Assembly: GCA_017411745.1 (NCBI GenBank)
Contig: JAFQPM010000005.1
Location: forward strand, 5,145-69,144
Length of the DNA: 64,000 nucleotides
Source of the DNA: Clostridia bacterium
Lineage (GTDB): Bacteria; Bacillota; Clostridia; Oscillospirales; CAG-272
Reading direction: 5' to 3'
This document shows, piece after piece, positions 5,853 through 53,121 of this stretch. Position 1 is the stretch's first letter. Each line of letters begins with the position of its first letter. A program made the translations under genes and the position numbers. The notes under the pieces were generated by a model that saw only the letters and a program-made list of their open reading frames with translations, was not told the origin of the DNA and ran no database searches.

Positions 5853-6533
5853 ATGAACGTATTGGTTGTTGATGACGATAGAGAGATCGTTGACAGCATA
5901 AGTATTTTTCTTTCTGGGGAGGGCTATAAGTCATTCAAAGCCTATGACGGAATCGAAGCGCTTGATATTCTGTCGGAAAACGAAGTGCATCTGATGATTC
6001 TTGATATTATGATGCCAAGGCTTGACGGGATCAAGACCTTGATGAAATTGCGTGAATCAAGAAATATTCCCGTTATTCTGCTTTCTGCAAAATCTGAAGA
6101 TACAGATAAAATTTTCGGACTTACGGCAGGGGCAGATGATTATGTTACGAAACCGTTTAATCCTTCGGAGCTTATGGCAAGAGTCAAGTCACAGCTCAGA
6201 AGATATACCGCTCTCGGTGCTATCGGAAAGCAGAACGGTGAAATCGTAATTGATGGTCTCTGCGTCAACACGGAGCGCAAGACTGTAAAGGTCGATGGGG
6301 AAAACGTCAGACTGACTCCCGTTGAGTACAAAATACTTGAGCTGTTGGTCAGAAACAGGGGGCGCGTGTACTCTGCGGAGGATATTTATTCAAACGTATG
6401 GAATGAACAAACGATCGTAGGGGATAACACGATAGCGGTACATGTCCGTCATATCCGAGAAAAAATCGAGATCAATCCCAAAGAACCGAAATATCTTAAG
6501 GTGGTTTGGGGGATAGGCTATAAGATTGATTAG
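5853..6533 (+). CDS. OmpR-family two-component response regulator
   Basis: Receiver domain (VVDDD..., ILDIMMP, K in LSAKSE) plus a winged-helix C-terminus (LTPVEYKILELL, VWGIGYKID). Confidence 0.92.
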   Translation: MNVLVVDDDREIVDSISIFLSGEGYKSFKAYDGIEALDILSENEVHLMILDIMMPRLDGIKTLMKLRESRNIPVILLSAKSEDTDKIFGLTAGADDYVTKPFNPSELMARVKSQLRRYTALGAIGKQNGEIVIDGLCVNTERKTVKVDGENVRLTPVEYKILELLVRNRGRVYSAEDIYSNVWNEQTIVGDNTIAVHVRHIREKIEINPKEPKYLKVVWGIGYKID

Positions 6534-6547
6534 AGGAGAAGGGATCT

Positions 6548-8611
6548 ATGAAAAAAATAATTTATTCGAGCTTTTTGAAGCTTATTGCCGTGATCTTATT
6601 GATCACGAGCATTGTGTGCGGTGTATTGACTATGATATACGGGAATTTAGAATATGGTGAGGAGGAGCAGGATATATATGCATTTGAAAGCGATTTCTCG
6701 GAATCGTGGTATATTTCTTACTTGCTGAGCCGACCCGAAAATCTGCTGATGGATGCATACTACAGCGCATACGGTGATCGTGAGTACGAAGGTGAAGTTA
6801 CATTTGATGATCAGGAAACCTATAGTCAAGAGAGCAATGCAGTTGAGGATCCCGAGATCATTGAAGACAACCTTACGCAAACATTCGGAGATCCTTATAA
6901 TTTTGAAAAAATAAATTATTACGTACAGTGGAATGATCTTGTATTTACAAACTGCGGAGCCGTTGCCCCCGAGGAGCTTATGCAGGGCGAGTATTATTCC
7001 TATTTGAAACGTGATAACACCGGCATGGTGGAGCGCTCATCGACAAATGAGCTTCGGGGATATTGGATAGAGGGGCTTGAGCGATTTGATTCCACGAGTG
7101 TCATTATCATCAGCTGCAGTGTAAAGGAAGAGACCGCCAAAGAATACAGGGCAATCTGGGAGAGGCAAGAAAATATATTTATCGGAATGTGTGTTCAAAC
7201 GCTTTTATGTGCTATTGTTGCTCTGATTTTGTTGATCTATCTGCTCTGCGTATGCGGAAAGAAGGCAAACGGTGAATATAAGAATATGTGGCTTGATAAC
7301 GTCTGGGTCGAGATACATTTGGCGGCGGTTATCGCTGCGGGTGTCGGATCGGTCGCACTCTGTATATTTGTACTTGAAGAATATATGTGGGGGAATTTCC
7401 CTCATATTTTGATTGGTTGGGCAATAGGGGCAGCTTCAGCGTTCGGCAGCTTGGTTATCATAACGTCGCTGCTTTCGATCATACGGAATATTAAAACCAA
7501 ACGGCTGGTCGAAACAAGCATTATACTTCGTATTTTAAGGTGGATATTGCATTTGATAATTAAGATGATAAAGTGGATCTGGAGACTAACGAAAGCGTTT
7601 TGGACGACTATTTTCAGGATGCTGTCGAAAAAAACAGGTGTACTTTTCACAACTATGCTTTTTGTATATACAGCCCTTATTGGAGTCATGGGTGTGTGTA
7701 CGGCTATTTCTCCGATATGGTTGCTAATTGGTGTTCTCTTGTTCGGAATTGCGTGCTTTGCTGTTGCTTGTCGAGCCAAAGATCTTGATGAGATAAAAAA
7801 AGGTGTCAGTGAGGTGCGGAGTGGAAATGTGTCGTATAAAATTCCTGAGCTGAAGTGCGATGATATGAAACCCTTGGCGGTTAATATAAATGATATTGCC
7901 AAGGGGCTCGACGAATCCGTATCTGCCAAGGTCAAGGCAGAAAGATTGAAGAGCGAGCTTATTACGAATGTATCACACGATCTGAAAACACCGATTACTT
8001 CTATTGTCAGCTATACCGAGCTTTTGTCAAAAATAGATGAGCTGCCCGAAGAAGCAAAGGATTACGTGTCCGTAATTGCTAAAAAGAGTGACAGATTAAA
8101 AAGGCTTACGCAAGATCTGTTCGATATTTCAAAGGCGCAGAGTGGTAACGATGACGTTGTTTTGGAAAAGCTCGATGTGGCGCTTCTTATCAACCAAGCG
8201 CTTGGTGAGCACGATAACGAAATTCAAAGCTCGGGTCTGCCGTTTTGCGTAGAAGCTCCTAAAGAGTTATTCATTTTAGCTGACGGTCGAAAGATGTCGC
8301 GCGTTTTGAGCAATTTGATTAACAACATTCTTAAGTATACGATGAAAAACACAAGAGTGTTTATTGCTGCATGCGAAAAAGAAGGCAATATTGAAATTGA
8401 GTTCAAGAATATTTCTGCATATCCTCTGAATTTTAACGTGGAAGAAATTACCCAAAGATTTGTTCGCGGTGACGAATCAAGAACAGCAGAAGGAAACGGT
8501 CTCGGCCTTGCGATCGCAAAAAGCTATACCGAAATATGTAACGGAGTTTTTGAAATCGTAGTTGACGGCGATATGTTCAAGGCAATTTTGAAATTTAAAA
8601 AGTATAGTTAA
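6548..8611 (+). CDS. Sensor histidine kinase (multi-TM N-terminal region, HAMP-like, HisKA, HATPase_c)
   Basis: H-box NVSHDLKTPITSI, N-box NLINNILKYT, G-box GNGLGLAIAKS. Starts 15 nt after the regulator gene. Confidence 0.9.
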   Translation: MKKIIYSSFLKLIAVILLITSIVCGVLTMIYGNLEYGEEEQDIYAFESDFSESWYISYLLSRPENLLMDAYYSAYGDREYEGEVTFDDQETYSQESNAVEDPEIIEDNLTQTFGDPYNFEKINYYVQWNDLVFTNCGAVAPEELMQGEYYSYLKRDNTGMVERSSTNELRGYWIEGLERFDSTSVIIISCSVKEETAKEYRAIWERQENIFIGMCVQTLLCAIVALILLIYLLCVCGKKANGEYKNMWLDNVWVEIHLAAVIAAGVGSVALCIFVLEEYMWGNFPHILIGWAIGAASAFGSLVIITSLLSIIRNIKTKRLVETSIILRILRWILHLIIKMIKWIWRLTKAFWTTIFRMLSKKTGVLFTTMLFVYTALIGVMGVCTAISPIWLLIGVLLFGIACFAVACRAKDLDEIKKGVSEVRSGNVSYKIPELKCDDMKPLAVNINDIAKGLDESVSAKVKAERLKSELITNVSHDLKTPITSIVSYTELLSKIDELPEEAKDYVSVIAKKSDRLKRLTQDLFDISKAQSGNDDVVLEKLDVALLINQALGEHDNEIQSSGLPFCVEAPKELFILADGRKMSRVLSNLINNILKYTMKNTRVFIAACEKEGNIEIEFKNISAYPLNFNVEEITQRFVRGDESRTAEGNGLGLAIAKSYTEICNGVFEIVVDGDMFKAILKFKKYS

Positions 8612-8831: not shown

Positions 8832-8906
8832 TGGTGACCCATCCGGGAATCGAACCCGAGTTTCCAGCGTGAGAGGCTAGCGTCTTAACCGCTTGACCAA
8901 TGGGCC
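8832..8906 (-). tRNA. tRNA-Glu (anticodon CUC)
   Basis: 75 nt. The reverse complement reads GGCCCATTGGTCAAGCGGTTAAGACGCTAGCCTCTCACGCTGGAAACTCGGGTTCGATTCCCGGATGGGTCACCA. Acceptor stem, anticodon stem CTAGC/GCTGG, loop CT-CTC-AC, T-loop GGTTCGATTCC and an encoded CCA are all present. Confidence 0.93.
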
Positions 8907-13107: not shown

Positions 13108-14133
13108 GTGAAACATAAATTTGATAAAGATATGTGTGAGATATTTACAGAGCGTGAAAAAACGACGTTTTCGCGTTATGCTTTCCTGACCGCTAACACC
13201 AAGGGCAGAGAGCGTCCTTACGTTCCTTGTACCATACGCACGGAGTTTCAGAGGGACAGAGATAAGATCATTCACTCGCAGTCCTTCCGCAGACTTATGA
13301 ATAAAACTCAGGTGTTTCTTGCTCCTGCGGGCGACCATTATCGAACAAGACTTACCCACACGCTTGAGGTCACTCAAATAGCAAGAATTATCGCGCGCGC
13401 GCTTCGTCTTAACGAGGACCTTACCGAAGCGGCGGCGCTTGGTCACGATCTTGGGCACACTCCCTTCGGACATGCGGGAGAGTCGGCGCTACAAGAGTGC
13501 TTTGATCCGAATTTTACACATTATAGGCAAAGCTTGCGCGTAGTAGACGTACTCGAAAACAATGGCGAGGGGCTTAATCTTACATGGGAGGTCCGCAACG
13601 GTATCGTTAATCACACAGGCAAGCATATGGCTGCCACGCTTGAGGGCGTTATAGTTAAATATGCCGATAGAATAGCCTACATAAATCACGATATAGACGA
13701 CGCTTGCCGTGCGGGAGTACTCAAAAAAGAGGATATTCCGAAGCAGATAACCGACGTGCTCGGTCAGGATCATAGCGAGCGAATAAACAATATGGTCATG
13801 TCGATCATCGAGACCAGCTACGACAAGCCGTACATTATGATGAGTCAGGACGTTGGACAGGCTACCAACGATCTGCGTGACTTCCTTTTTGAAAACGTAT
13901 ATCTCAATCCCATCGCAAAGGGAGAAGAGGCAAAGGCGCGCGAGCTGCTCATAAAGCTGTTTGAATATTACGTTAAAAATCCCGACAAACTGCCGGGGCT
14001 ATACCATAAAAATTTGGAAAACGAGTCTGTTGAGAGGTGCGTTTGCGATTTTGTGTCGGGTATGACCGACAGATACGCGATCGAGACCTATAACGACATC
14101 TTCGTTCCCAAGGTCTGGAGGGGTCACGCATGA
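13108..14133 (+). CDS. dgt: dGTP triphosphohydrolase-like HD-domain protein
   Basis: FQRDRDKIIHSQSFRRL, HYRTRLTHTLEV and LGHDLGHTPFGHAGE. GTG 13108 is preceded by AGGGAGAG; ATG 13132 is an alternative, and the track ORF starts at 13066. Confidence 0.86.
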   Translation: MKHKFDKDMCEIFTEREKTTFSRYAFLTANTKGRERPYVPCTIRTEFQRDRDKIIHSQSFRRLMNKTQVFLAPAGDHYRTRLTHTLEVTQIARIIARALRLNEDLTEAAALGHDLGHTPFGHAGESALQECFDPNFTHYRQSLRVVDVLENNGEGLNLTWEVRNGIVNHTGKHMAATLEGVIVKYADRIAYINHDIDDACRAGVLKKEDIPKQITDVLGQDHSERINNMVMSIIETSYDKPYIMMSQDVGQATNDLRDFLFENVYLNPIAKGEEAKARELLIKLFEYYVKNPDKLPGLYHKNLENESVERCVCDFVSGMTDRYAIETYNDIFVPKVWRGHA

Positions 14134-15893
14134 GATTCCCCAGAGAGCTTGTTGAGGAGATCCGTTCGCGAAACGATATAGTCGAGCTTATCGGGTCTTA
14201 CGTAAATCTGAAACGCGCGGGGGCGAACTACAACGGACTTTGTCCGTATCACAGTGAAAAATCGCCTTCGTTTACGGTTTTTCCAGCTACACAGTCGTTT
14301 TATTGTTTCGGCTGCGGCGCAGGCGGTGATGCGGTGACGTTTATCATGCGTTCGGAAAATCTTGATTATCCCGAAGCGGTCGAATTGCTCGCCAAAAGGG
14401 CGGGAATAACAATAACGGCAGACGAAGAAAAGCAGGGCGGTATCAGCAAAAGAAGGATATACGAGATGAATCTCGCGGCGGCAAAATATTTCCGCGCTTG
14501 TCTTTTCGATCCAAAGCTTGGTCGGGTCGGAATGGAATATCTTTCTGAAAAAAGAAGACTGTCGCCTGCCGTCATCAAGCATTTCGGCCTTGGCTTTGCG
14601 CCCGAGAGCTTCGGCGCGCTTACCGATCACATGCACAAGCAGGGGTTTTCTGACGAGGAGCTGATAGTCGGCTTCCTTTGCGGAAAAAGTCAGAAAACGG
14701 GAAGAGCGTACGATTATTTCAGAAATCGAGTTATTTTTCCTATCATCAATACGTCGGGCGATATTATCGCGTTCGGCGGTCGAGTTATGGACGATTCAAA
14801 GCCGAAGTATCTGAACTCGTCGGATACGCCGGGATTTAAAAAGAGCCGCAATCTGTTTGCGCTCAATTATGCGAAAAATCATTGCTCGGAGAGGCTTATT
14901 CTCTGTGAGGGCTATATGGACGTTATAGCGCTTCACGCGGCAGGATTTGAAAATGCCGTCGCAACGCTTGGAACTGCGCTTACGCAGGATCAGGCGAGAA
15001 TGATGGCTAAATATACCAAGGAGGTCGTTATTTCCTACGACTCCGACGAAGCGGGGCAGGCGGCTACGAGAAAAGCGGTCAGGATGCTCTCGGAGGTCGG
15101 TCTTGACGTAAAGATACTTCGAATGGAAGGCGCGAAGGATCCCGACGAATATATTAAAAAATTCGGTGCGGACAGCTTCCGCAGGCTGCTTGATGCAAGC
15201 CGCACGGGCTTTGAATTCAAGCTTGAATCGACGCTGCAGAAATACAATCTGTCGACCGCACAGGACAAGATCAAGGCATCGGCTGAAATGTGTGAGTATA
15301 TTTCGGAGGAATGGTCGAGCGCGGCGAGGGACGTTTATATCGGCGCAACGGCGGCGAGACTTTCGATCTCTCCCGAGGGGCTGAAAAATGACGTGGAGCT
15401 ACTCAGGAAGAAGAAGATCAAAAGCTTCAACGAAAAGACGTCGCAGCAGGCAAGGCTTGGCGCGATGGGCGTTGGCGACAAGATAAATGCCGACGGGATC
15501 AAAAATATAAAGGCAAAGGCGGCGGAGGAGGCAGTCATCGGGCTTATGCTTACGTACGACGAGTATCGCGACGCGATAATTCGGGGCAAGGCAGAGCTTT
15601 CGGCAGACGATTTTACGTCCGAATTCCACGCAAGAGTTTTTGATAAAATAATTGAGCTTCAAAAGGAAAATCAGTTTGATTTTTCTTTGCTCGGCGAGTT
15701 TTTCACGCCCGATGAAATGGGCAGGCTTCAGGGTCTGGAGCAAAAGAGAAGAGTGCTGACCGAAAACGGTATGCAGGTATTTCTCCAATGTGTAGCGACC
15801 GTGAAGGAGGAAAAGAGATCTTCCTCATCCGAAGCTGGTGGTATCGACGAGATAAAACGGTTGCTTGAACAAAAAAGAAACGCGAATAAATAG
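14130..15893 (+). CDS. dnaG: DNA primase
   Basis: Zinc ribbon CPYHSEKSPSFTVF...CFGCGAGGD; Toprim EGYMDVIA / SYDSDEAGQAAT. The ATG overlaps the dgt stop (ATGA). Confidence 0.95.
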   Translation: MRFPRELVEEIRSRNDIVELIGSYVNLKRAGANYNGLCPYHSEKSPSFTVFPATQSFYCFGCGAGGDAVTFIMRSENLDYPEAVELLAKRAGITITADEEKQGGISKRRIYEMNLAAAKYFRACLFDPKLGRVGMEYLSEKRRLSPAVIKHFGLGFAPESFGALTDHMHKQGFSDEELIVGFLCGKSQKTGRAYDYFRNRVIFPIINTSGDIIAFGGRVMDDSKPKYLNSSDTPGFKKSRNLFALNYAKNHCSERLILCEGYMDVIALHAAGFENAVATLGTALTQDQARMMAKYTKEVVISYDSDEAGQAATRKAVRMLSEVGLDVKILRMEGAKDPDEYIKKFGADSFRRLLDASRTGFEFKLESTLQKYNLSTAQDKIKASAEMCEYISEEWSSAARDVYIGATAARLSISPEGLKNDVELLRKKKIKSFNEKTSQQARLGAMGVGDKINADGIKNIKAKAAEEAVIGLMLTYDEYRDAIIRGKAELSADDFTSEFHARVFDKIIELQKENQFDFSLLGEFFTPDEMGRLQGLEQKRRVLTENGMQVFLQCVATVKEEKRSSSSEAGGIDEIKRLLEQKRNANK

Positions 15894-15918
15894 TATATAA
15901 GCGAAAGGAAGTATAAAA

Positions 15919-17052
15919 ATGAGTGATATGTTTTTGGAGGATGTTGAGGTAGACGCAGTCCCCGAGGAGACCGAGTCTAAAAAGGTAGAACACCTCATTG
16001 AAAAAAGCAAAAAAGCAGGACTTTCAGAGGAAGATTTCGATCAGGCTCTCGAGGAGATGAATTACGACGTCGACGAGCTTGACAAGCTCTACGAGGCGCT
16101 TGAGGATAACGGTGTGTCTTTGCCGGGATCGCTCTCCAACGCCGAGCTTGAGGAGATCCAAAAGGAAGTATCCAAGTTCGAAAACGGCGCGAGCATGGAA
16201 AAGATACTCGAGCAGGAGGGACTTTCGATCGACGACCCCGTTCGCCAGTATCTTAAGGAGATCGGTCGTATTCCGTTGCTTGATTCCGACGGAGAAAAGG
16301 AGCTTGCAGAGAGAATGCTCAACGGAGACGAAAATGCAAAGACCAAGCTCGTTGAGTCTAACCTTCGTCTTGTTGTAAGTATAGCTAAAAAGTACCTTGG
16401 AAGAGGAATGTACTTCCTTGATCTTATTCAGGAGGGAAATCTCGGTCTTATGAAGGCGGTCGACAAGTTCGACTACACCAAGGGATACAAATTCTCGACC
16501 TACGCGACCTGGTGGATCAGACAGGCTATCACCAGAGCGATCGCTGACCAGGCAAGAACCATTCGTATTCCCGTGCACATGGTCGAGACTATTCACAAGG
16601 TAACAAAATATTCCCGTCAGATGCTTCAGGAGCTTGGTCGTGAGCCCACTGCCGAGGAGATCGGTGACAAGATCGGCATGAGCGCTGACAAGGTCAGAGA
16701 GATACTTAAGATCGCGCAGGATCCCGTGTCGCTCGAAACTCCTATCGGTGAAGAGGAGGACAGCCATCTTGGCGACTTTATCCCCGACGATGATACGCCT
16801 GCGCCTGCAGATGCCGCCGCTTCAACTATTCTTCGCGAGGTCATCGAAAGAGAGCTCCATACGTTGACGCCCAGAGAGGAGCACGTCATCAAGCTTCGCT
16901 TCGGTCTTTACGACGGAAGAACTAGAACTCTTGAGGAGGTTGGTAAGGAATTTGACATTACCAGAGAGCGTATCCGCCAGATCGAGGCAAAGGCGCTCCG
17001 CAAGCTGCGCCATCCCAGCCGCGCAAGACATCTCAGAGGCTTTCTTGATTGA
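15919..17052 (+). CDS. rpoD: Primary RNA polymerase sigma factor
   Basis: Region 2 [27 protein letters not shown]; region 4 [30 protein letters not shown]. Confidence 0.96.
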
Positions 17053-43030: not shown

Positions 43031-43525
43031 ATGAGCAACGAGAGAGTTTCCAAGCACAATTATTATCTTGATATCGCGCAGACTGTTGCGGAGAGAGCGA
43101 CCTGCATGCGCCGCCATTTCGGTGCTATCATCGTCAAGGACGACGTTATCGTTTCGACGGGCTACAACGGCGCGCCCAGAGGCAGACAGAACTGCACCGA
43201 CATCAACTTCTGCATCAGGGACAAGCTTCAGATCCCTCGCGGAGAGAGATACGAGATGTGCCGTTCGGTTCACGCCGAGGCGAACGCGATCATTGCCGCG
43301 CCCAGAGACAGAATGCTCGGTGCGACGCTTTATATGGTCTGTGTTAACCCCAAGGACAACTCGCTTTACGACGGCACGTCGAGCTGTATGATGTGCAAGC
43401 GCCAGATAATCAACGCGGGTATTGAGACGGTCATCGTGCGCGACACCAAGGACGAATACAGAATTATTCCCGTTTCGAGCTGGATCGAGGACGACGATTC
43501 GCTTTCGGGCAAGTTTGGATATTGA
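43031..43525 (+). CDS. comEB: dCMP deaminase (ComEB-type)
   Basis: Zinc motifs VHAEANAI and SCMMCKRQIINAGI. Confidence 0.9.
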   Translation: MSNERVSKHNYYLDIAQTVAERATCMRRHFGAIIVKDDVIVSTGYNGAPRGRQNCTDINFCIRDKLQIPRGERYEMCRSVHAEANAIIAAPRDRMLGATLYMVCVNPKDNSLYDGTSSCMMCKRQIINAGIETVIVRDTKDEYRIIPVSSWIEDDDSLSGKFGY

Positions 43526-44028
43526 TCAAGGATTTTGGAGATATGGAAGAAAATATTAAGGTTGGCGGCGAGAAAAAGGCGAGAAAGAGGATCTATCCTG
43601 AAAGGCTGACCGTCGACGCGCTTGACGGAGTAGCGGAGCTTGAGAAGCTTTGCTTTAGTCAGCCGTGGAGCCGCAAAAGTCTTGAATTGCTGACGAATGA
43701 AGGCATCGGCGTTGGCATGGTCTGCCGCAAGGACGGGATCGTTTGCGCTTACGGCGGTATGATGTGCGCGGTCGACGAGGGGCAGATAACCAATATCGCT
43801 ACTCATCCCGACCATCGCAGACAAGGCTACGGCAAGGCGGTCGTTGAGGCGCTTATTAAGTACGCTAAGAATAATCATCTTGAGTCGATCTCGCTTGAGG
43901 TCAGGGAATCTAATCGTGCGGCGATAGAGCTTTATTCGGCGCTTGGATTTAAGGTCGAGGGTAAGAGGAAGGATTTTTATACCAAGCCCACGGAGTCGGC
44001 GCTCGTTATGGTGCTGAAGGTTAAGTAA
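43522..44028 (+). CDS. rimI: Ribosomal-protein-alanine N-acetyltransferase (GNAT)
   Basis: GNAT motif HRRQGYGKAVVEAL; position directly upstream of tsaD. Start is uncertain (TTG 43522 or ATG 43543). Confidence 0.78.
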   Translation: MIKDFGDMEENIKVGGEKKARKRIYPERLTVDALDGVAELEKLCFSQPWSRKSLELLTNEGIGVGMVCRKDGIVCAYGGMMCAVDEGQITNIATHPDHRRQGYGKAVVEALIKYAKNNHLESISLEVRESNRAAIELYSALGFKVEGKRKDFYTKPTESALVMVLKVK

Positions 44029-44150: not shown

Positions 44151-45158
44151 ATGTACATTTTAGGAATGGAAAGCTCCTGCGACGAGACGTCGGCGGCGGT
44201 GGTTGAATACCGTGACGGAGTGTTTGAGATAAAATCGAATATAGTGGCGTCGCAGATCGAGACGCACCGTTTATACGGCGGTGTAGTGCCCGAGATCGCG
44301 AGCAGGGCACACATTGAGGCGGTATCGTCGATCACGACCGAGGCACTTGAAACAGCGGGAATAACGCTTGGAGAGCTTGACTGCGTGGCGGTCACGACGC
44401 ATCCCGGGCTTATCGGCGCGCTTTTGGTTGGGGTCAACTTTGCAAAGTCGCTCGCGTTTGCGAACAATATTCCGCTTGTGTCGGTCAATCACGTGCACGG
44501 ACACGTGGCGGCGGCTTATCTGACAGACAAGACCTTGAAGCCCAAGTTTTTGTCGCTCGTGGTGTCGGGCGGTCACACGTCGATATACGTTTGCGAGGAC
44601 CACAGAACGCTTCGCGAGATCGGTACTACCCGTGACGACGCGGCAGGAGAGGCGTTTGACAAGATCGGGCGCGTGATCGGTATGCCGTACCCCGGCGGCG
44701 CGGCACTTGACAAGCTTGCCTACGAGGGTGACTCAAAGGCGATCAAGCTTCCGTCGCCTGCGCTTATGCACACGCTTGATTTTTCATTCAGCGGTATCAA
44801 GACGGCGGCGCTCAATTACCTCAATTCCGCTTCGCAAAAGGGCGAGCAGATCGTTTGCACGGACGTTGCCGCGTCCTACACCAAGGCGATCGTGGACGCT
44901 ATAGTTAAGCAGACCTCGGCGGCTTTGGACCAGACGGGGCTTGACACGCTCGTGCTTGCGGGCGGCGTTGCGGCTAACTCGCATTTGCGCGCGGCGCTTG
45001 AAAAAATGTGTCAGGGCAGGGGTGTGAAATTTATCGTACCTCCGAGAGAGCTTTGCGGCGACAACGGCGCGATGATCGCGGTTGCGGGCTGCTTTGAGTA
45101 TCTTGGCGGCAAATTCGCAGATACCTCTCTGAACGCTTCGGCTTCGGATGAGATTTGA
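44151..45158 (+). CDS. tsaD: tRNA N6-adenosine threonylcarbamoyltransferase
   Basis: ILGMESSCDETSAAVV, VNHVHGHVAAAY, GGVAANSHLR. The ATG at 44151 is internal to track ORF 44082-45158. Confidence 0.95.
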   Translation: MYILGMESSCDETSAAVVEYRDGVFEIKSNIVASQIETHRLYGGVVPEIASRAHIEAVSSITTEALETAGITLGELDCVAVTTHPGLIGALLVGVNFAKSLAFANNIPLVSVNHVHGHVAAAYLTDKTLKPKFLSLVVSGGHTSIYVCEDHRTLREIGTTRDDAAGEAFDKIGRVIGMPYPGGAALDKLAYEGDSKAIKLPSPALMHTLDFSFSGIKTAALNYLNSASQKGEQIVCTDVAASYTKAIVDAIVKQTSAALDQTGLDTLVLAGGVAANSHLRAALEKMCQGRGVKFIVPPRELCGDNGAMIAVAGCFEYLGGKFADTSLNASASDEI

Positions 45159-45208
45159 TGGCTCGAACAGAGGTTCAGTTTTGTGTTTCCAGGTGTTTTC
45201 AACACAGG

Positions 45209-45371
45209 TTTTCCACAGATGTGGAAAAGCGCAAAACCCAGATGACTTTTTTCGACAAATATGTATAAATATTCGTCGGTGAGGTTTTGATTTCCTTTAT
45301 TTGTCAATGATTTTTGTGGATAAGTTTGTGGAAACTGTGGATTAATCGAACGCTTGAACGGCTGTGGAAAA
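45209..45371. promoter_or_regulatory. Cluster of six DnaA-box-like 9-mers
   Basis: TTTTCCACA 45209-45217; TGTGGAAAA 45220-45228; TGTGGATAA (perfect) 45315-45323; TGTGGAAAC 45327-45335; TGTGGATTA 45336-45344; TGTGGAAAA 45363-45371. Consensus is TTATCCACA / TGTGGATAA. Confidence 0.75.
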
Positions 45372-45478
45372 CTCAAAAACGTCGATTTTTGGCGTTTTAG
45401 CCTGCTAAAATATGCCATTTTAATTTGAAATTTTTTGTGAATTGTTTGATAACTAATTTGTTATAAGGATGTGTAAGG

Positions 45479-46219
45479 ATGAACATTTACGACAACGAAA
45501 GCATGGGCAAGATGACCGAAAAGCAGAGTATTTCTCCCGCGGTCATTCGCAGACTGCCGAGATACTATCGCTATCTTTGCGAGCTGATCGCAAAGGGAAA
45601 GACTCGCATAAGCTCGGGTGAGCTGGCTCACATGATGAACGTTACCGCTTCGCAGATCCGTCAGGATCTTAACTGCTTCGGCGGCTTCGGTCAGCACGGT
45701 TACGGCTACAACGTGAACTATCTTTTCGCAAAAATAAGCGAGATACTCGGGGTCAGTGCGGGCTTTAACGCTATTATAATCGGCGCGGGCGACCTTGGCC
45801 GTGCGCTCGTGCACCTGTCGATGTTCGAAAAGAGAGGCGTTGATATCAGCGCGCTCTTTGACACGGGTAACGATGCCGAGGGCAAGGATTGCGCGGGCGT
45901 GCCCGTATATCCTATTTCCCAGCTCGAGAGCTTCTGCGCGGAGAACAAGGTCGATATTGCGGTGCTCGCTTGTCCCAAGCAGTACGTTAAGGAGATCGCG
46001 GACAGGTGCGTTAAGCTCGGTCTGAAGGGCCTTTGGAACTATATGGGAGTTGAGCTTGACTACACCGACGACGATATTATCGTTGAAAACGTGCATCTTG
46101 GCGACTCGCTGATGATAATGAATTGCCGCATCTGTCGCAATATGAGCGACGACAAGGCTTCGTCCGACGGCGACGTTTCGGAGAATGAATGGCAGGACGA
46201 CAAGGAGAGTGAATTTTAA
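45479..46219 (+). CDS. rex: Redox-sensing transcriptional repressor Rex
   Basis: ISPAVIRRLPRYYRYLCEL...SSGELAHMMNVTASQIRQDLNCFGGFGQHGYGYNV, plus the Rossmann motif IIIGAGDLGRAL. Confidence 0.92.
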   Translation: MNIYDNESMGKMTEKQSISPAVIRRLPRYYRYLCELIAKGKTRISSGELAHMMNVTASQIRQDLNCFGGFGQHGYGYNVNYLFAKISEILGVSAGFNAIIIGAGDLGRALVHLSMFEKRGVDISALFDTGNDAEGKDCAGVPVYPISQLESFCAENKVDIAVLACPKQYVKEIADRCVKLGLKGLWNYMGVELDYTDDDIIVENVHLGDSLMIMNCRICRNMSDDKASSDGDVSENEWQDDKESEF

Positions 46220-47209
46220 GTGAAGTATATAATCAATTACGGTTGCAAGGTTGCCGTCGTTCCCGAAAAGGCGCTTGAGGTAAGCGCGAGGGCGGGAGCT
46301 GTTGAGCTTCGGGTCCTGCTCGGGCTTTGCGCTCTCGGCGGCAGCGTTGATATAAAGAAGCTTGCGCGGTCGCTCTCGTGCTCCGAGGACGACGTAAAGA
46401 GTGCGTTGGCATTCTGGAGAGGCGCGGGTGTTATTGAGCTTGGTGACTCGAAGGAAACTGCTTCAGATGAGCCTGCGGCAGAGGCTGTCGTTGCGTCCCA
46501 AAAGTTTGATGAGAAGGCTACAGAGGTTTCTCGCGAGGCTGTAAAGAAGCTTCGCAGAGCCGACGAGCTGCCGCAGTACACCTCTGATCAGCTTTCTGAC
46601 ATTCTTGAGCAAAGAAAAGAGACTGCGACGTTGATCGACGAGTGTCAGCATATTATGGGTAAGGTGTTTAACGTCAAGGAGATCAACGTTCTGATGGGAC
46701 TCGTTGATTATCTTGAGCTTGACTGTGAGTACATAATGATGCTTTTGACCTATTGCGTTTCATTGGGTAAAAAGACTCTGCATTATGCCGAAAAGCTGGC
46801 ATTTGCGCTTTACGATGCGGGAATTACTACGGGGGAGCAGCTTTCCGAGGAGCTTCGTCGACGCGAACTTGCATCTGACGCGGAGGGCAAGATCAGGACG
46901 CTTTTCGGAGTTGGAGAGAGAGCTTTTACCACGAAGGAAAAGAAGTTTATTTCCTCTTGGATCAACGATATGAATTATTCGATCGAGATAATCGAGAAGG
47001 CTTACGAGGTCACTGCCGACGCGACGGGCAAGGGCTCGTTTCCTTACGCGAACACGGTTCTTGAGCGTTGGAATGCGGCAGGGCTCAGAACTCTTGAGGA
47101 AATAGAGGCGTCGTATAAAAAGAGTGGATCAGAGGGTCCTGCAGTCGGCAGCTTTGATACCGACAGCTTCTTTGAGGCGGCTGTAAGGCGCAGTCTTGGA
47201 AACAATTGA
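46220..47209 (+). CDS. DnaD-domain replication initiation protein (B. subtilis DnaB/DnaD-like)
   Basis: Two DnaD/DnaB_2-like segments (EINVLMGLVDYLELDCEYIMMLLTYC; ISSWINDMNYSIEIIEKAYEVT...VLERWNAAGLRTLEEIE). The GTG start abuts the rex TAA stop. Confidence 0.83.
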   Translation: MKYIINYGCKVAVVPEKALEVSARAGAVELRVLLGLCALGGSVDIKKLARSLSCSEDDVKSALAFWRGAGVIELGDSKETASDEPAAEAVVASQKFDEKATEVSREAVKKLRRADELPQYTSDQLSDILEQRKETATLIDECQHIMGKVFNVKEINVLMGLVDYLELDCEYIMMLLTYCVSLGKKTLHYAEKLAFALYDAGITTGEQLSEELRRRELASDAEGKIRTLFGVGERAFTTKEKKFISSWINDMNYSIEIIEKAYEVTADATGKGSFPYANTVLERWNAAGLRTLEEIEASYKKSGSEGPAVGSFDTDSFFEAAVRRSLGNN

Positions 47210-47227: not shown

Positions 47228-48190
47228 ATGGGTTTTAACAGAGAAAATTACGCTAAAATAAAGAGCGAATACGACGGTAAGTATCTTCGCGCGGTCGAAC
47301 AGGCTCAATTCAGGCGCGCAGAGATACACGCAAAGCTCCCTGAAATTGCGAAAATAGACGGTGAGCTGTCGGCTTCGGGTATGAGAGTCTTTGAGGCCTC
47401 GGTCAGCGGCGATCGTGCTATGGTCGACAGGATCAATGAGGAAAATCGTGCTCTCTTGAAGAAAAGAGCTGATATTCTCGTTGCGGCGGGATTCCCCGCA
47501 AACTATACCGAGATAAGATACGAGTGCTCGGAGTGCGGCGACACGGGTACGGTGGGTTACCGCATGTGCAGATGTATGCGTGACAAGCTTATCAAGGCGG
47601 GGCTTGAGTCCTCGGGAATGTACGAGCTTATAAAGACGCAGAGCTTTGATAATTTTGAGCTGAAGTATTACTCGGGCGATGCGCTTCCCAGAATGAAGGC
47701 TATTTTTGATATTGCAAAAAAATATGCAGAGGACTTTGAGGCTGAAAAGTCTGGCAGTATTCTGATGATGGGCGGCACAGGCCTTGGAAAGACGCATCTT
47801 TCAAGTGCTATGGGCGGTGTTATCATCGAAAAGGGAAACGACGTTTATTATGCTAATGCGGTCGATATGCTTGCTGATTTTGAAAAGGAAAAGTTCGGCA
47901 ATCTGCGTTCGAGCGAGTCTGCAGACACAGAAAAGTATTTTTCTTGCAATCTTCTTATAATCGACGATCTCGGAACAGAGCTTGTAAGTCAGTTCAGCAC
48001 GTCCTGTCTTTACAATCTCATAAATTCCCGTCTTATAAGGAAGAAATCTACTATAATCAACACTAATTTCACCAAAGAGGAAATGAGAAAGAAGTATCAG
48101 GATAGGATCACGAGCCGTATTTTCGGTGAATATCTCGTTTTGCCGTTTGCAGGCACGGATATTCGCGAGAAAAAGCTTTTTGCGAAATGA
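47228..48190 (+). CDS. DnaC/DnaI-like helicase-loader AAA+ ATPase
   Basis: Zinc motif CSECGDTGTVGYRMCRCM; Walker A MMGGTGLGKTHL; Walker B LLIIDDLGTE. Confidence 0.88.
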   Translation: MGFNRENYAKIKSEYDGKYLRAVEQAQFRRAEIHAKLPEIAKIDGELSASGMRVFEASVSGDRAMVDRINEENRALLKKRADILVAAGFPANYTEIRYECSECGDTGTVGYRMCRCMRDKLIKAGLESSGMYELIKTQSFDNFELKYYSGDALPRMKAIFDIAKKYAEDFEAEKSGSILMMGGTGLGKTHLSSAMGGVIIEKGNDVYYANAVDMLADFEKEKFGNLRSSESADTEKYFSCNLLIIDDLGTELVSQFSTSCLYNLINSRLIRKKSTIINTNFTKEEMRKKYQDRITSRIFGEYLVLPFAGTDIREKKLFAK

Positions 48191-48200
48191 TATTTAAAAA

Positions 48201-48235
48201 GCAACGAAAAATCACGGTTTTTCGTTGCTTTTTTG
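48201..48235 (+). terminator. Rho-independent terminator
   Basis: gcaacgaaaaa / tttttcgttgc hairpin followed by tttttt. Confidence 0.9.
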
Positions 48236-48766: not shown

Positions 48767-48800
48767 GGGCATCCTGCGGTTGCAGAATGCCCGTTTTTTG
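48767..48800. terminator. Bidirectional terminator between convergent genes
   Basis: gggcat-cctgc..gcaga-atgccc hairpin, with an A-run upstream and gttttttg downstream. Confidence 0.85.
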
Positions 48801-48810
48801 TTATTTGAAA

Positions 48811-51800
48811 TTATTCGCCGAGAGATTCGAGGTATGCGCTCGTATCCTCGCACATTGCTACGAATGCGATATCGATTGTAAGTCCCGTGGGAATTCCGTC
48901 CGGGTGGTTGAGCGCGTCAAGACGGATATATTTAGCGATATATTCGCCGTTTGCGTCAGGTGTGAAGGTGCCGCCGCTACCGAGTGTAGCATCGAGAATT
49001 ACGAGATGCCATTCACCGTCTGCTACAAGAAGCTCCTTGCCGAGCGTGTTGATATGGTCACCTGCGGTTGCATCGGTGTTGTTGGTGCTCGTGAAGCACT
49101 CGATGAAAAGATTTTCGGTAATCAGAGCCGCATGCTCGGCGGCAATGCGATACTTAATTACGATATACTGACCCGTCACTTCGTTTCCTCCCGCGTATAT
49201 GTTGAGGAAGGCTTCGGGTATGCTCTTTTCCGTGCCGATGGTCACGTAGCTTTCGTCGTCTGCAAGAGTTTTGGAAACTCCCGAGTTTCCGAGTGCTGCA
49301 GCGATGGTCGAGGAATCGATGAAGAGATCAAAATAGTCTGCGTCACTTGCTTCACCCGTTCCCGAGGAAACGTAGATCACGGAGCTGGTGTTTTCGTTTT
49401 GTACGAGGTCTACGGACACCATATCCTTATTGATCTCGAGAGCTGCATCAAGGCTGTCGCAGAGAGCTACGTACTGAAGATCAATATACGAGGTAGCAGA
49501 CATAGCTGCGTTGAATATATCGAATCTGAAGTATTTGGTAGAATAGCTGCCGTCTTCGTTTGCAACGAAGTTTTCAAGCTTGAATGCCGCAAGATCGATG
49601 ACCATAACGTGCCATTCGCCGTCTTTCTTGACATCGCGGGACAGCATCCAGTCCTTAGAGCCGATGATGTCAGTCGCTTCGGTTCCGATGTATACCTGGA
49701 AGTGACCGGGATCGGTATCGTTAGTAGTGGGAACTCTGTACTTGACGACTACGTATCCGCCTGTGGTTTCGGCAGTTATGGGGAGAGAGAAGTACTTTTC
49801 TGCGCTTGTGCCGTCGCCGTAGATACGAACGCAGGTGTCGTCCTCTTCAAGAGCAGCGCCTGTGATTACCGAGATGTCGGATGCGCCCCAATAGTTCTCT
49901 ATATCGGGGGTGTCGTCGGGCTTTTCGGGTTCGACCCAACCCGTGAATTCCTCGGAGGCTTCTACCTTGAAGGTTCTTGTCTGGTCGCCTGTGAGCGTGG
50001 TTACGAAGGAGTAGGAGAAGGTTCCGTCTCCGTCGTAGTGCACGGCATAGCCGTCGTAGAGGTGAGCGTTGCCATATTTGTCGGGAGTCGTCGCGGAGCT
50101 TACGTCAACGAGCACCCATTCGCCGTCAACGAGCTCGTAAAGCTTGGGAGCTGTGAGAAGATCAAATCCGTATACACGGAAGGTCACGTTGTTCTCTCCG
50201 CCCGAGAGGGTAAAGGTTGCGTCCTTACCATTGGTGGTCTTGATCGAGGGGAGGAACTCGCTATCAAGAACGGTTGCGTTCTCAACTGCGGTTGCCTTGA
50301 AGGGATCGAGAAGCGAGTTTTCACGAACGTCTCTTACGTTCTGGTCGGGGGCAACGGAGGTGTCACCGTTTCTGTACGCCTGGTTCCACCAAGGCATAAT
50401 GATCGCGTTGATGGTGACGGTCGCTCCTGCCTTGATCGTCTGCGTGCCGTCGATGTTGAGGGTAAGCGATCCCGTGCCGTCCTTCTCGTATACTGCAAAG
50501 TTGACACCGTCGTCGCTGCCGTCGGCGTTAAGGTCGACGAAGGAGTTATAGATAAGGAAGGAAACGTCTGCCATCTGCGTGCCGGGGGTATTGGAGGTCT
50601 CGTACATATCGAAATAGGGACAATCGGTGCCGAGCACGTACTTGGTTCCTTCGGTCATGGTAGCTATTTCAGCAACTGCGCCGTTTTCGCCCCAATAGCC
50701 AAGCTTTGCGTAGCCATCGCCGTATGCGCGGACTGCGTAGAAGGAGAAGTTCTTGTAGAACTCGTTGATGGTAATATCCTCCTTGACGGTGTACTGCATC
50801 GTGTAGTACGCTCTGTTCTCGTCGAGCTGAGGCATTTCCATATGAGTGTAGGTAACCTCGATCTTGCCGTCGTCGGAGAAGTAGGTCAGGTCGATATCTG
50901 CGTAGGTAGGACCTGCCGCCTCGATGTTGTTGACGATGCTATCCGAATTCACGAGGTTTCCGTCGCTGTCGGTATACTGCAGGAAGTAATGGAATCCGCC
51001 GTTGTCGTGCTGGGGATCTCCTGCCCAAAGGGGAGCAGACGCTGCTCTGTGGTCGGGGAGGGTCTGGAGGTCCTTATTGTAAACGTAGTAGTTCGCAATA
51101 CAGTTACTCTCGGTTACACCTGTAGAAAGGTGATAGTAGGGAGCAAAGAACTGGATCGAGGATATCTGCTTAAGCGGATATTTACCCCAGTTCATATAAA
51201 GCTGAAGCACGGTGAGCTCCTGAGTCTCTCCTGCGGAAAGTGCTACGGGGAATCTTACCTCACTGTACTTGATATCGCCCCAAGCCCAGATCGGCTCTTC
51301 AAACTCGTTTGCGAAGTTCTTGGAGACCTCTACGGGTATGGGAAGCATCATATCGTTACCGTCGAGCACTGCACCGCACTCGATGCTGGTAGAGTATGTG
51401 TATGCGAGAACGTACATATTACGGTCGTAGTCATCACCCTTTACGGAGAAGGATACTGCGCCGTGGAAGTTCTGTTCGTGATAGTATGCGGTGTTGAAGC
51501 CTATGTTTTCAGCTACGGTGAACGCGTAGATTCCGCGGAGACCGTCGTATCCGTCGAAGGTTGCGTTTACGGTCTTGTCGGTGTTGATAACGATATTTTC
51601 CTTGGTAAGAGGATTGCGCTCTATGTACGCTTCCTCAAGGAATTCGGCGAAATCGTGAGAAGCGTCGGTGTATATTCTCTGACCGAAGAAGTAGTCGGTC
51701 TTGGAGCTGTAGATGTCGGTGCTGGTGCCCTGGAAGCCTGCTACCTCCTGCTGTGTGTATACGGTCTTGTGAGCATCAAGCTTTCCTCCCTCGGGAACTG

Positions 51801-53121
51801 TGGCCTGCTTGATGACGTAGTTGCCGTCCTCAAGAGTAACGGTAAGAGTGCCGCTGGTTTCGTCGGTTGCGAGAATGTATCCGAAGATACCTGTACCCTT
51901 GATGTCGAAGCCTACGTATTCTGCGCTTGCCCAGTCGATGCCGTTAAGATCGTAGTGGAGACCGTTCTTGTCGTATACTACGAGCTTATCTACGGTGTTT
52001 TCCGCGATCTTGGTGATCATACCGATCTCCTTGATGCCCGTTACGTCTTCTGTTGCGATGAGGCGGGCGATCTGATGGAGCTTATCGGTGTAGGTGTGGA
52101 GGTTTCTGTCAAGCAGGATCTTGGGAGCTCCGTCGTCGTTTACGTTGACGAGCTTGACGCTCGAGACCTCGATCGTTTCGCCTACCTCGCCGTTAAAGTC
52201 GAAGCGGAAGCCGTTGATGTTTCCGTCGAAATTCTTAACGGTGCCCTGATCCAAGCGAATGGTGTAGGTGTGGAACTCACCGTCGTTCTTGGTGTAGAAG
52301 GTTACGTGCTGATCGTTGGTGTAGCTGTTGATACCGCCTGCGGAGAAGTATACGTCGACGTTGGTGGTCGAGGTGACCTTCATAGTGATCTGAAGCGCGT
52401 TTGCCTCGGATGTGGGAACCTTGAACGTGTCTATTTCCGTGAAGAAATAGGGGTCGCGGTTGCTTTCAATCGTGGATTTGAGAACGCCGCCCGTAGGATC
52501 GGGTCTGGTCATATCGTTCGACTTCTTAAACAGCTTCAAGCTGATATCCTTAACATCGGATATGGTCGTATCTCCTGCGAAGTTCTGTCCGTAAAGGCGG
52601 ATATCATAGTAGTAGTATCCGTAACGGAAGATGTTCGACTCCGCGTCGTAGAACGAGCCCGAGGAGTAGTAGGTCTTGCCGTTCTCCATAGCAACGTACA
52701 CGTCCATAGTGTCGGTCACGTATGCGTTACCCTTCTTATTTGTGATGGTAACGAGCTGTTTTTCGGTGCTCGTGAGGGGATAGTTGAGATTCATATTACC
52801 GTTCTCTACGCGATAGTGCTCACGCGCAGGATCGGTGAAATACGAGGTCACGCCGTTTTTGAGATTGTCGGCGTTCTCAATAAGCTGGGCATAGGGACCT
52901 TCGAGCTTGGGGTCGTTCGATACGGTGGTCTCCTCCTCGGTGGTCTCCTCGTCACCTTTTGTGGTGTCTTCGGTGCCACTTGTGGTTCCCTCGGTGGTGT
53001 TTTCCGAGCCTTGTGTTGTGGTCTCATCGCCTCCCGTGGGGGTCTTGCACGCTGCCAACATGCCCGCGGTCATGACTGCAACGAGAAGGAGAGCGATAAG
53101 CGCTAAGCTTCTTTTTTTCAT
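48811..53121 (-). CDS. Giant lipoprotein of unknown function (1436 aa) with Thr/Glu-rich linker and two paralogous C-terminal ~150-aa modules
   Basis: Lipobox MKKRSLALIALLLVAVMTAGMLAAC; AGAGAGGA RBS; consensus promoter upstream. The repeated C-terminal signature is KYR...DGEWH...KY-R-D...ID..VA-C. Confidence 0.82.
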   Translation of the reverse strand: MKKRSLALIALLLVAVMTAGMLAACKTPTGGDETTTQGSENTTEGTTSGTEDTTKGDEETTEEETTVSNDPKLEGPYAQLIENADNLKNGVTSYFTDPAREHYRVENGNMNLNYPLTSTEKQLVTITNKKGNAYVTDTMDVYVAMENGKTYYSSGSFYDAESNIFRYGYYYYDIRLYGQNFAGDTTISDVKDISLKLFKKSNDMTRPDPTGGVLKSTIESNRDPYFFTEIDTFKVPTSEANALQITMKVTSTTNVDVYFSAGGINSYTNDQHVTFYTKNDGEFHTYTIRLDQGTVKNFDGNINGFRFDFNGEVGETIEVSSVKLVNVNDDGAPKILLDRNLHTYTDKLHQIARLIATEDVTGIKEIGMITKIAENTVDKLVVYDKNGLHYDLNGIDWASAEYVGFDIKGTGIFGYILATDETSGTLTVTLEDGNYVIKQATVPEGGKLDAHKTVYTQQEVAGFQGTSTDIYSSKTDYFFGQRIYTDASHDFAEFLEEAYIERNPLTKENIVINTDKTVNATFDGYDGLRGIYAFTVAENIGFNTAYYHEQNFHGAVSFSVKGDDYDRNMYVLAYTYSTSIECGAVLDGNDMMLPIPVEVSKNFANEFEEPIWAWGDIKYSEVRFPVALSAGETQELTVLQLYMNWGKYPLKQISSIQFFAPYYHLSTGVTESNCIANYYVYNKDLQTLPDHRAASAPLWAGDPQHDNGGFHYFLQYTDSDGNLVNSDSIVNNIEAAGPTYADIDLTYFSDDGKIEVTYTHMEMPQLDENRAYYTMQYTVKEDITINEFYKNFSFYAVRAYGDGYAKLGYWGENGAVAEIATMTEGTKYVLGTDCPYFDMYETSNTPGTQMADVSFLIYNSFVDLNADGSDDGVNFAVYEKDGTGSLTLNIDGTQTIKAGATVTINAIIMPWWNQAYRNGDTSVAPDQNVRDVRENSLLDPFKATAVENATVLDSEFLPSIKTTNGKDATFTLSGGENNVTFRVYGFDLLTAPKLYELVDGEWVLVDVSSATTPDKYGNAHLYDGYAVHYDGDGTFSYSFVTTLTGDQTRTFKVEASEEFTGWVEPEKPDDTPDIENYWGASDISVITGAALEEDDTCVRIYGDGTSAEKYFSLPITAETTGGYVVVKYRVPTTNDTDPGHFQVYIGTEATDIIGSKDWMLSRDVKKDGEWHVMVIDLAAFKLENFVANEDGSYSTKYFRFDIFNAAMSATSYIDLQYVALCDSLDAALEINKDMVSVDLVQNENTSSVIYVSSGTGEASDADYFDLFIDSSTIAAALGNSGVSKTLADDESYVTIGTEKSIPEAFLNIYAGGNEVTGQYIVIKYRIAAEHAALITENLFIECFTSTNNTDATAGDHINTLGKELLVADGEWHLVILDATLGSGGTFTPDANGEYIAKYIRLDALNHPDGIPTGLTIDIAFVAMCEDTSAYLESLGE

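Follow-up and report, generated by a model that had tools for sequence, protein, structure and literature searches.

We analysed a cluster of binding-site motifs (boxes) for the replication initiator DnaA, located between tsaD (gcp) and rex on a contig of an uncultured gut Clostridia bacterium (CAG-272, Oscillospiraceae-like). The stretch of DNA under study, referred to below as the window, comprises 64,000 nt (GCA_017411745.1, JAFQPM010000005.1, positions 5,145-69,144, forward strand). In it, rimI and tsaD precede the boxes, and rex, a gene for a DnaD-domain protein and a gene for a putative helicase loader follow them (Table 1). DnaA boxes were scored against the textbook box TGTGGATAA and against the consensus TTWTNCACA (Schaper and Messer 1995). 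The same consensus has been applied to Clostridia in PMC7561715, and its validity there is supported by the conservation of the box-reading DnaA residues between Firmicutes and E. coli (PMC7561715).

Table 1. Boxes, predicted signals and genes around the tsaD-rex spacer (window positions). A1 is the alignment of tsaD-downstream spacers from 13 relatives.
Feature	Position	Strand	Remarks
rimI	43522-44028		just upstream of tsaD
tsaD (gcp)	44151-45158	+	TIGR03723, 410 bits; PF00814
Weak extra box TTTTCAACA	45196-45204	-	two mismatches; upstream of the inverted pair
Box L1 TTTTCCACA	45209-45217	-	exact TTWTNCACA; left half of the inverted pair
Box L2 TGTGGAAAA	45220-45228	+	right half of the inverted pair, 2-bp gap
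Middle element TTTTCGACAAATATGTATAAATATTCG	45249-45275		conserved in A1
Box R1 TGTGGATAA	45315-45323	+	perfect; first of the triple array
Box R2 TGTGGAAAC	45327-45335	+	two mismatches; 3 bp after R1; n3 spacing conserved
Box R3 TGTGGATTA	45336-45344	+	abuts R2 directly; n0 spacing conserved
Box R4 TGTGGAAAA	45363-45371	+	18 bp after R3; conserved in A1
Predicted -10 of the rex operon, TGc-TAAAAT	45403-45411	+	31 nt after R4; read from sequence
Rex-operator-like site TTGTGAATTGTTTGATAA	45435-45452	+	two mismatches to the Rex operator consensus TTGTGAAnnnnTTCACAA
rex (redox-sensing repressor)	45479-46219	+	NF003990, 262 bits, above cut-off; PF06971, PF02629
DnaD-domain protein with two DnaB_2 (DDBH2) domains	46220-47209	+	PF07261 (two stretches), TIGR01446
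DnaC/DnaI-like AAA+ putative helicase loader	47228-48190	+	NF005304, 272 bits, above cut-off; PF01695
Intrinsic-terminator-like hairpin	48196-48233	+	17-bp stem, then T run; closes the putative operon

The first boxes follow the tsaD stop codon (45158) at 45196, where the box is weak, and at 45209. Six boxes lie within 163 bp: five differ from TGTGGATAA at one position at most, the sixth at two, and four of the six are exact matches to TTWTNCACA. This is the arrangement described in an earlier, sequence-only reading of the same DNA, which had reported one perfect, four one-mismatch and one two-mismatch box, among them the inverted pair at 45209-45228 and tandem boxes starting at 45315, 45327 and 45336; all of these were recovered. 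The prevalent variant is TGTGGAAAA rather than the textbook TGTGGATAA.

Such a density is unique in the window. If one mismatch is allowed, TGTGGATAA matches at 19 places, five of which lie in the cluster, and the 64 kb hold 15 copies of the core TGTGGA/TCCACA, six of them inside the roughly 160 bp that the cluster takes up. When boxes with up to two mismatches are counted per 200-bp window, the cluster scores 8-9 and every other place in the 64 kb scores at most 4. Exact TTWTNCACA motifs number 11 in the whole window, against 3.6 expected. A DnaA-box cluster (DBC) in the sense of Ishikawa 2007 / Okumura 2012 has at least four close boxes, none with more than one mismatch, inside a single intergenic region, and the tsaD-rex spacer qualifies by this sequence criterion. 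Two further hallmarks, stable DnaA binding and a share in restraining initiation, are known from B. subtilis, the former for the cluster after gcp and the latter from a six-fold deletion.

Homologous loci were collected by a TsaD scan taking one genome per species. This close set comprises 32 loci with TsaD 56-97% identical, all from metagenome-assembled genomes of uncultured gut or rumen Clostridia/Oscillospiraceae, and 29 of them entered the box count. At least three boxes in the 500 bp after tsaD were found in 24 of these 29 related species genomes, compared with one of 452 control windows (Fisher p = 1e-34). Conservation of the boxes in relatives, which the sequence-only reading had named as a check on its proposal, is thus borne out. 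The order tsaD-spacer-rex-co-loader-loader is likewise retained in each of the 28 loci that extend far enough.

In A1, the invariant columns fall almost all inside the boxes while the spacers between them diverge. The conserved layout begins with the inverted pair TTTTCCACA-nn-TGTGGAAAA, often accompanied by an extra upstream box, continues with a middle element of the form TTCGACAAAnATGTATAAATAT, and ends with the array TGTGGATAA-n3-TGTGGAAAC-TGTGGAWWA-n18-TGTGGAAAA. The columns of L1 are invariant; those of R1 are essentially so, nearly all relatives having a perfect box there. At the position aligned to the weak box TTTTCAACA, relatives carry TTTTCCACA or TTTCCCACA. Box L2 is either kept or weakened to TGTTGAAAA or TGTGGGAAA, with no compensating change in the other arm, and for this reason the pair L1/L2 is not an RNA hairpin. 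A tsaD terminator or RNA hairpin at this place was also rejected on the grounds of its unremarkable folding (z = -1.19), the missing U tract and substitutions that break pairing. No known RNA family was found in the tsaD-rex spacer by an Rfam search, whose sole match in the window is a tRNA (8835-8906, - strand).

The middle element TTTTCGACAAATATGTATAAATATTCG can be read as two weak boxes in inverted orientation, TTTTCGACA-aa-TATGTATAA, at 45249 and 45260. It also includes TTCGACA, the reverse complement of the Spo0A-box-like TGTCGAA. The element may be a weak DnaA-box pair or a site for a second protein. Similar motifs, ATGTAAAT together with TCGACA/GTCGAA, recur beside the triple arrays of distant loci (L041, L078, L106, L113). 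Within the cluster, TGTATAAAT (about 45262) was considered as part of a sigma-A promoter and discarded, as no acceptable -35/-10 spacing exists there on either strand.

Three related loci differ after tsaD. In L018, about 590 bp of repetitive DNA containing duplicated segments (6050-6640) is inserted between tsaD and the cluster, and the boxes still stand beside rex. In L019 (6026-6192) and L021 (5339-5509), both with TsaD about 70% identical, tsaD is followed by GACCTTGGAGGCGCAGGGA repeated in tandem and by a palindromic stretch rich in G+C, in place of DnaA boxes; both contigs end a short way further on.

Queries with single proteins reached close relatives only (TsaD at 75% identity or more, the DnaB_2 protein at 62% or more). 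A scan with aligned TsaD proteins (A2) against contigs of viral and metagenomic origin extended, unlike these queries, to about 50% TsaD identity. It yielded a distant set of 84 loci with TsaD 46-72% identical, of which 73 were usable. By the same measure, 13 of the 73 loci have at least three boxes in the 500 bp after tsaD, versus one of 970 control windows (p = 4e-15). Altogether 11 box clusters were detected in the distant loci (594 kb), and 10 of them begin 26-322 bp after the tsaD stop codon. The only one elsewhere (L101, 2862-2987) lies directly after rimI, and it is rimI that stands about 2 kb apart from tsaD in that genome.

The most distinctive part of the cluster is the triple array, box-n3-box-n0-box. 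With relaxed boxes, and with both strands of 117 sequences (930 kb) searched, it occurs 34 times in 28 sequences. Every occurrence is on the tsaD strand and 100-330 bp after tsaD. The number expected by chance is 0.01, and five shuffles preserving local composition gave none. When TsaD proteins are clustered at 75% identity, the array is present in 7 of 37 lineages.

Outside the clade of our window, the genes downstream of the array are unrelated ones or convergent with tsaD: a histidine kinase, a HAD hydrolase, IspD, the rho side, GNAT, a serine recombinase and a CDP-alcohol phosphatidyltransferase. Boxes standing behind a tsaD terminator are seen in several distant lineages, and convergent arrangements occur in some (L075/L083, L107), while rex is co-oriented with tsaD here. 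Because the same array follows tsaD in front of such unrelated genes, tsaD and not rex or the loader genes is the constant partner. On this comparison of gene orders, what stays with the cluster is the 3' end of tsaD, and only in this clade do rex and the loader genes come next. The pattern speaks for a function that is conserved by selection and belongs with tsaD, whichever gene follows.

Two of the distant lineages carry mobile DNA beside the cluster. A prophage contig of IMG/VR (L033, 1300-6084) has its viral part next to the tsaD-downstream cluster, and its bacterial flank is otherwise near-identical to L049. In L106, a large serine recombinase occupies 6824-7780 beside the cluster.

A locus of this kind is already known from B. 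subtilis, where gcp is the name of tsaD. The cluster DBC[gcp-ydiF] (Ishikawa et al. 2007; Okumura et al. 2012; Smith & Grossman 2015) is a top DnaA-binding site, conserved in Bacillaceae and of no known role. It lies between convergent genes, and Ishikawa et al. say of the site that it 'is uncharacteristic for transcriptional regulation'. In vitro, the gcp-ydiF region ranks among the top four DnaA-binding regions, with a dissociation constant of 0.15 uM for ATP-DnaA; it contains 10 sites and prefers ATP-DnaA 16-fold at low DnaA concentration (PMC4447404). Published counts give 8-10 boxes within about 50 bp. In old coordinates of B. subtilis 168 the gcp-ydiF spacer lies at about 643,951-643,999, and most DBCs of this species are near oriC. 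Deletion of all six B. subtilis DBCs causes early initiation (PMC3245932; review PMC13220808).

We consider it highly probable that the cluster in our window is a genuine secondary, non-origin DnaA-box cluster and the Clostridia counterpart of DBC[gcp-ydiF], fixed at the 3' end of tsaD. The sequence-only reading had likewise seen a secondary cluster of the B. subtilis kind, and non-randomness, conservation in relatives and a position identical to that of the proven DBC[gcp-ydiF] all favour it; the link to DBC[gcp-ydiF] was absent from that reading. Like its counterpart, the cluster lies directly downstream of gcp/tsaD and is conserved independently of its flanks. It is not placed between convergent 3' ends, an arrangement that characterises the type example and not the class.

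One might suppose instead that the boxes came together by chance, or that they are sites of another DNA-binding protein whose motif contains TGTGGA. Most boxes are indeed TGTGGAAAA and not TGTGGATAA, and the Spo0A-box-like TTCGACA is interleaved with them. However, the statistics of clustering and conservation exclude chance, TTTTCCACA is an exact TTWTNCACA, R1 is perfect in nearly all relatives, and the same position binds DnaA in B. subtilis. We regard this explanation as very improbable.

The genes downstream deserve separate attention. The tsaD start was set at 44151 from homologues of 335 aa. The DnaD-domain gene starts with a GTG abutting the rex stop codon, has a ribosome-binding site AGGAGAG 10 nt upstream, and is separated from the loader gene by a gap of 18 nt. 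No terminator-like site was found between tsaD and rex. From this layout, rex, the DnaB_2 gene and the DnaC/DnaI-like gene look like one operon. The sequence-only reading had called the second gene 'DnaD-like'; it does encode a DnaD-domain protein, and a 99%-identical protein carries the source name 'DnaD domain protein', but its two DnaB_2 domains are the architecture of the B. subtilis DnaB co-loader rather than of DnaD. The product of the third gene matches DnaC and DnaI weakly, below their cut-offs.

The TGcTAAAAT motif and the A+T-rich stretch behind it (45412-45470, 80% A+T) are present as the sequence-only reading had described them. In the putative -10 hexamer, the second letter (A) and the sixth (T) are conserved in A1; the TG is not conserved in relatives. 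The candidate -35 paired with it, at about 45382-45388, is poor. The stretch from the predicted -10 to the start codon of rex contains the Rex-operator-like site TTGTGAATTGTTTGATAA, one of two such sites with at most two mismatches in the 64 kb, and its first half-site (TTTGTGAA/TTTGTAAA) is conserved in A1. This suggests that rex is autoregulated through TTGTGAATTGTTTGATAA, which would place the co-transcribed helicase-loader genes under redox control.

Further downstream, an open reading frame (ORF) of 1439 aa on the + strand (48787-53106) was tested as a further member of the replication operon (e.g. PolC) and rejected, having no family match. Two ORFs of about 1,437 codons overlap there on opposite strands (48787-53121). 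The real gene is that on the - strand (48811-53121), and the + strand ORF is its shadow, because TTA, CTA and TCA codons are nearly absent from the genome. The - strand product begins with a lipoprotein signal peptide, has a high content of Thr, Asp and Gly, and matches no Pfam or NCBIfam family. Elsewhere in the window, sigA (15919-17052, sigma-70 regions 1.2-4) is preceded by an ORF of 587 aa, a candidate dnaG, the two together covering 14130-17052.

The position of the boxes raises the possibility that the cluster is mainly a DnaA-dependent operator of the rex/co-loader/loader operon, through which replication status would feed back on loader synthesis, titration being incidental. The boxes stand directly upstream of the predicted promoter, R4 ending about 11 nt before the putative -35, and the order cluster-rex-co-loader-loader is kept in about 24 species. 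More distant members have a good sigma-A-like promoter after the last box (e.g. TTGACA-17-TAGAAT in L017), relatives devoid of boxes (L015, L028, L031, L038) also lack a spacer long enough for a promoter, and DnaA controls replication genes elsewhere, namely dnaN and Caulobacter dnaB and dnaQ (PMC8203912). On the other hand, the same array follows tsaD in at least six other lineages, before unrelated or convergent genes and often behind a tsaD terminator, and the B. subtilis cluster, set between convergent genes, has been called uncharacteristic of transcriptional regulation. Moreover, L041 joins tsaD directly to the co-loader gene, with no rex and only one good box, and the geometry between boxes and promoter is not conserved. 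We hold a predominantly regulatory role to be possible but rather unlikely. As for the claim of the sequence-only reading that the boxes put rex, the DnaD-like and the DnaC/I-like gene under DnaA control, their position upstream of a predicted promoter and the apparent operon agree with it; given the constancy of tsaD as partner, such control is a possibility confined to this clade and does not account for the existence of the cluster.

The same A+T-rich stretch, coming after many DnaA boxes, could be taken as the unwinding region of a replication origin or of its remnant (an ectopic oriC). In the window, it is occupied by the -10-like hexamer, the Rex-operator-like site and the rex ribosome-binding site, and some relatives (L010, L025, L027, L030) have the boxes but not this stretch. 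The features expected of oriC, i.e. skew inversion, adjacency to dnaA/dnaN and DnaA-trios by an unwinding element, were not found. All 2-kb bins of the 64 kb show a positive GC skew, with no switch; neither DnaA nor DnaN is encoded by window ORFs of 340-540 aa, and no DnaA-trio array exists in 45101-45500. The remark of the sequence-only reading that the window lacks dnaA and dnaN holds, and the skew analysis it proposed, run on the window, gives no sign of an origin. The B. subtilis counterpart is not an origin either, and we regard an origin here as extremely improbable.

Returning to the secondary tsaD-linked cluster, several observations weigh against it. The cluster is absent or degraded in five of the 29 related genomes; among four exceptions inspected, the tsaD-rex spacer is only 50-104 bp long in L015, L028 and L031, and the boxes are degraded in L011. 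It is also absent from 60 of the 73 distant tsaD loci. Being missing in these relatives and in most distant loci, it is evidently dispensable. Its distance to the promoter varies between sub-clades, and a consensus promoter scan called no promoter at the predicted -10. In B. subtilis, deletion of DBC[gcp-ydiF] alone has no measurable effect, and its re-insertion near oriC does not rescue the six-fold deletion (PMC3245932; PMC13220808), so that the titration role of this particular cluster is weak even there.

With these reservations, the cluster could work as follows; DnaA binding, titration and transcriptional control are what we infer from position and motif. The site would have a high affinity and prefer ATP-DnaA, which would bind cooperatively to R1-n3-R2-n0-R3 together with R4, and to the inverted pair L1/L2, forming a stable nucleoprotein complex outside oriC. 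As in B. subtilis, such a complex would hold a part of the cell's DnaA and so help to restrain initiation. In this clade, it would span about -45 to -210 of the predicted rex-operon promoter. It is plausible, perhaps likely, that DnaA occupancy also modulates expression of the helicase-loading genes; as to the sign of the effect, we lean to repression or homeostatic feedback. With the Rex-operator-like site just downstream of the -10, DnaA and Rex could jointly control the co-loader and loader genes.

A more active role has also been considered, in which the locus is dedicated to control of the DnaA cycle and changes the nucleotide state of DnaA, in the manner of E. coli datA, which stimulates ATP hydrolysis, or of DARS, which brings about nucleotide exchange. 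The triple array keeps its spacing and orientation in seven TsaD lineages, and this suggests a specific oligomer geometry and not simple accumulation of boxes. A head-to-head pair accompanies the array, the second conserved motif beside the boxes could bind an accessory factor, and few DnaA-binding regions of B. subtilis favour ATP-DnaA over ADP-DnaA as strongly as the counterpart does. Against this stand the silent single deletion in B. subtilis, the absence of the locus from many lineages, and the report that Firmicutes are devoid of IHF, Hda and datA-type systems (PMC13220808). We therefore give this alternative a slim chance. A broader version, in which the tsaD-3' triple array is an ancient, Firmicutes-wide, active DnaA-control locus (datA/DARS-like or a checkpoint) wired in this clade, together with the Rex operator, to the loader promoter, is in our opinion doubtful. 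If it were true, initiator status and the cellular NADH/NAD+ ratio would together determine how much loading machinery is supplied.

The gcp/tsaD-downstream DBC as a kind of locus is known already. New are its extension to Clostridia, the conserved triple-box architecture and, in this clade, its position before the rex/helicase-loader operon. The finding overturns nothing. The array, however, defines a minimal, conserved and testable element for studying the unexplained gcp DBC. The clade itself offers a natural experiment, in which the cluster abuts the predicted promoter of an operon joining Rex to two helicase-loading proteins, and it points to a mechanism, accessible to experiment, through which the state of the initiator and the redox state might set the capacity for replication initiation in anaerobes. 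In our literature search, no paper pairing a DnaA box with tsaD was found.

Of the known systems, DBC[gcp-ydiF] is the closest. Both clusters are intergenic and consist of closely packed boxes directly 3' of gcp/tsaD, with rimI before it; both are outside oriC and conserved, and both have rex nearby. In B. subtilis, rex (ydiH) lies two genes beyond ydiF. They differ in that the B. subtilis flanking genes are convergent and offer no candidate target promoter, whereas here a co-oriented rex and then the loader genes follow. The variant TGTGGAAAA prevails in our cluster, a counterpart by position and motif that belongs to an uncultured gut Clostridia bacterium and not to a Bacillus.

Other B. subtilis DBCs are associated with promoters: DnaA activates sda and represses dnaA, ywlC and yydA. 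Our cluster resembles them in having multiple boxes beside a promoter, here a predicted one. The targets would be rex and the helicase-loading genes, which are not among the DnaA targets of a 2021 review, and the cluster is tied to the upstream gene, not to the downstream one. Tandem boxes of the same orientation and tight spacing are likewise found in oriC arrays (B. subtilis incC, C. difficile oriC2), from which our cluster is set apart by the absence of DnaA-trios, of a skew switch, of dnaA/dnaN and of a conserved unwinding element. Finally, E. coli datA and DARS1/DARS2 are also non-origin clusters of 3-5 boxes with defined spacing and orientation, and control initiator availability. Of these, datA and DARS2 require IHF (and Fis) and change the nucleotide state of DnaA, for which no counterpart is known in Firmicutes, and none of them has sequence or positional homology to our locus.

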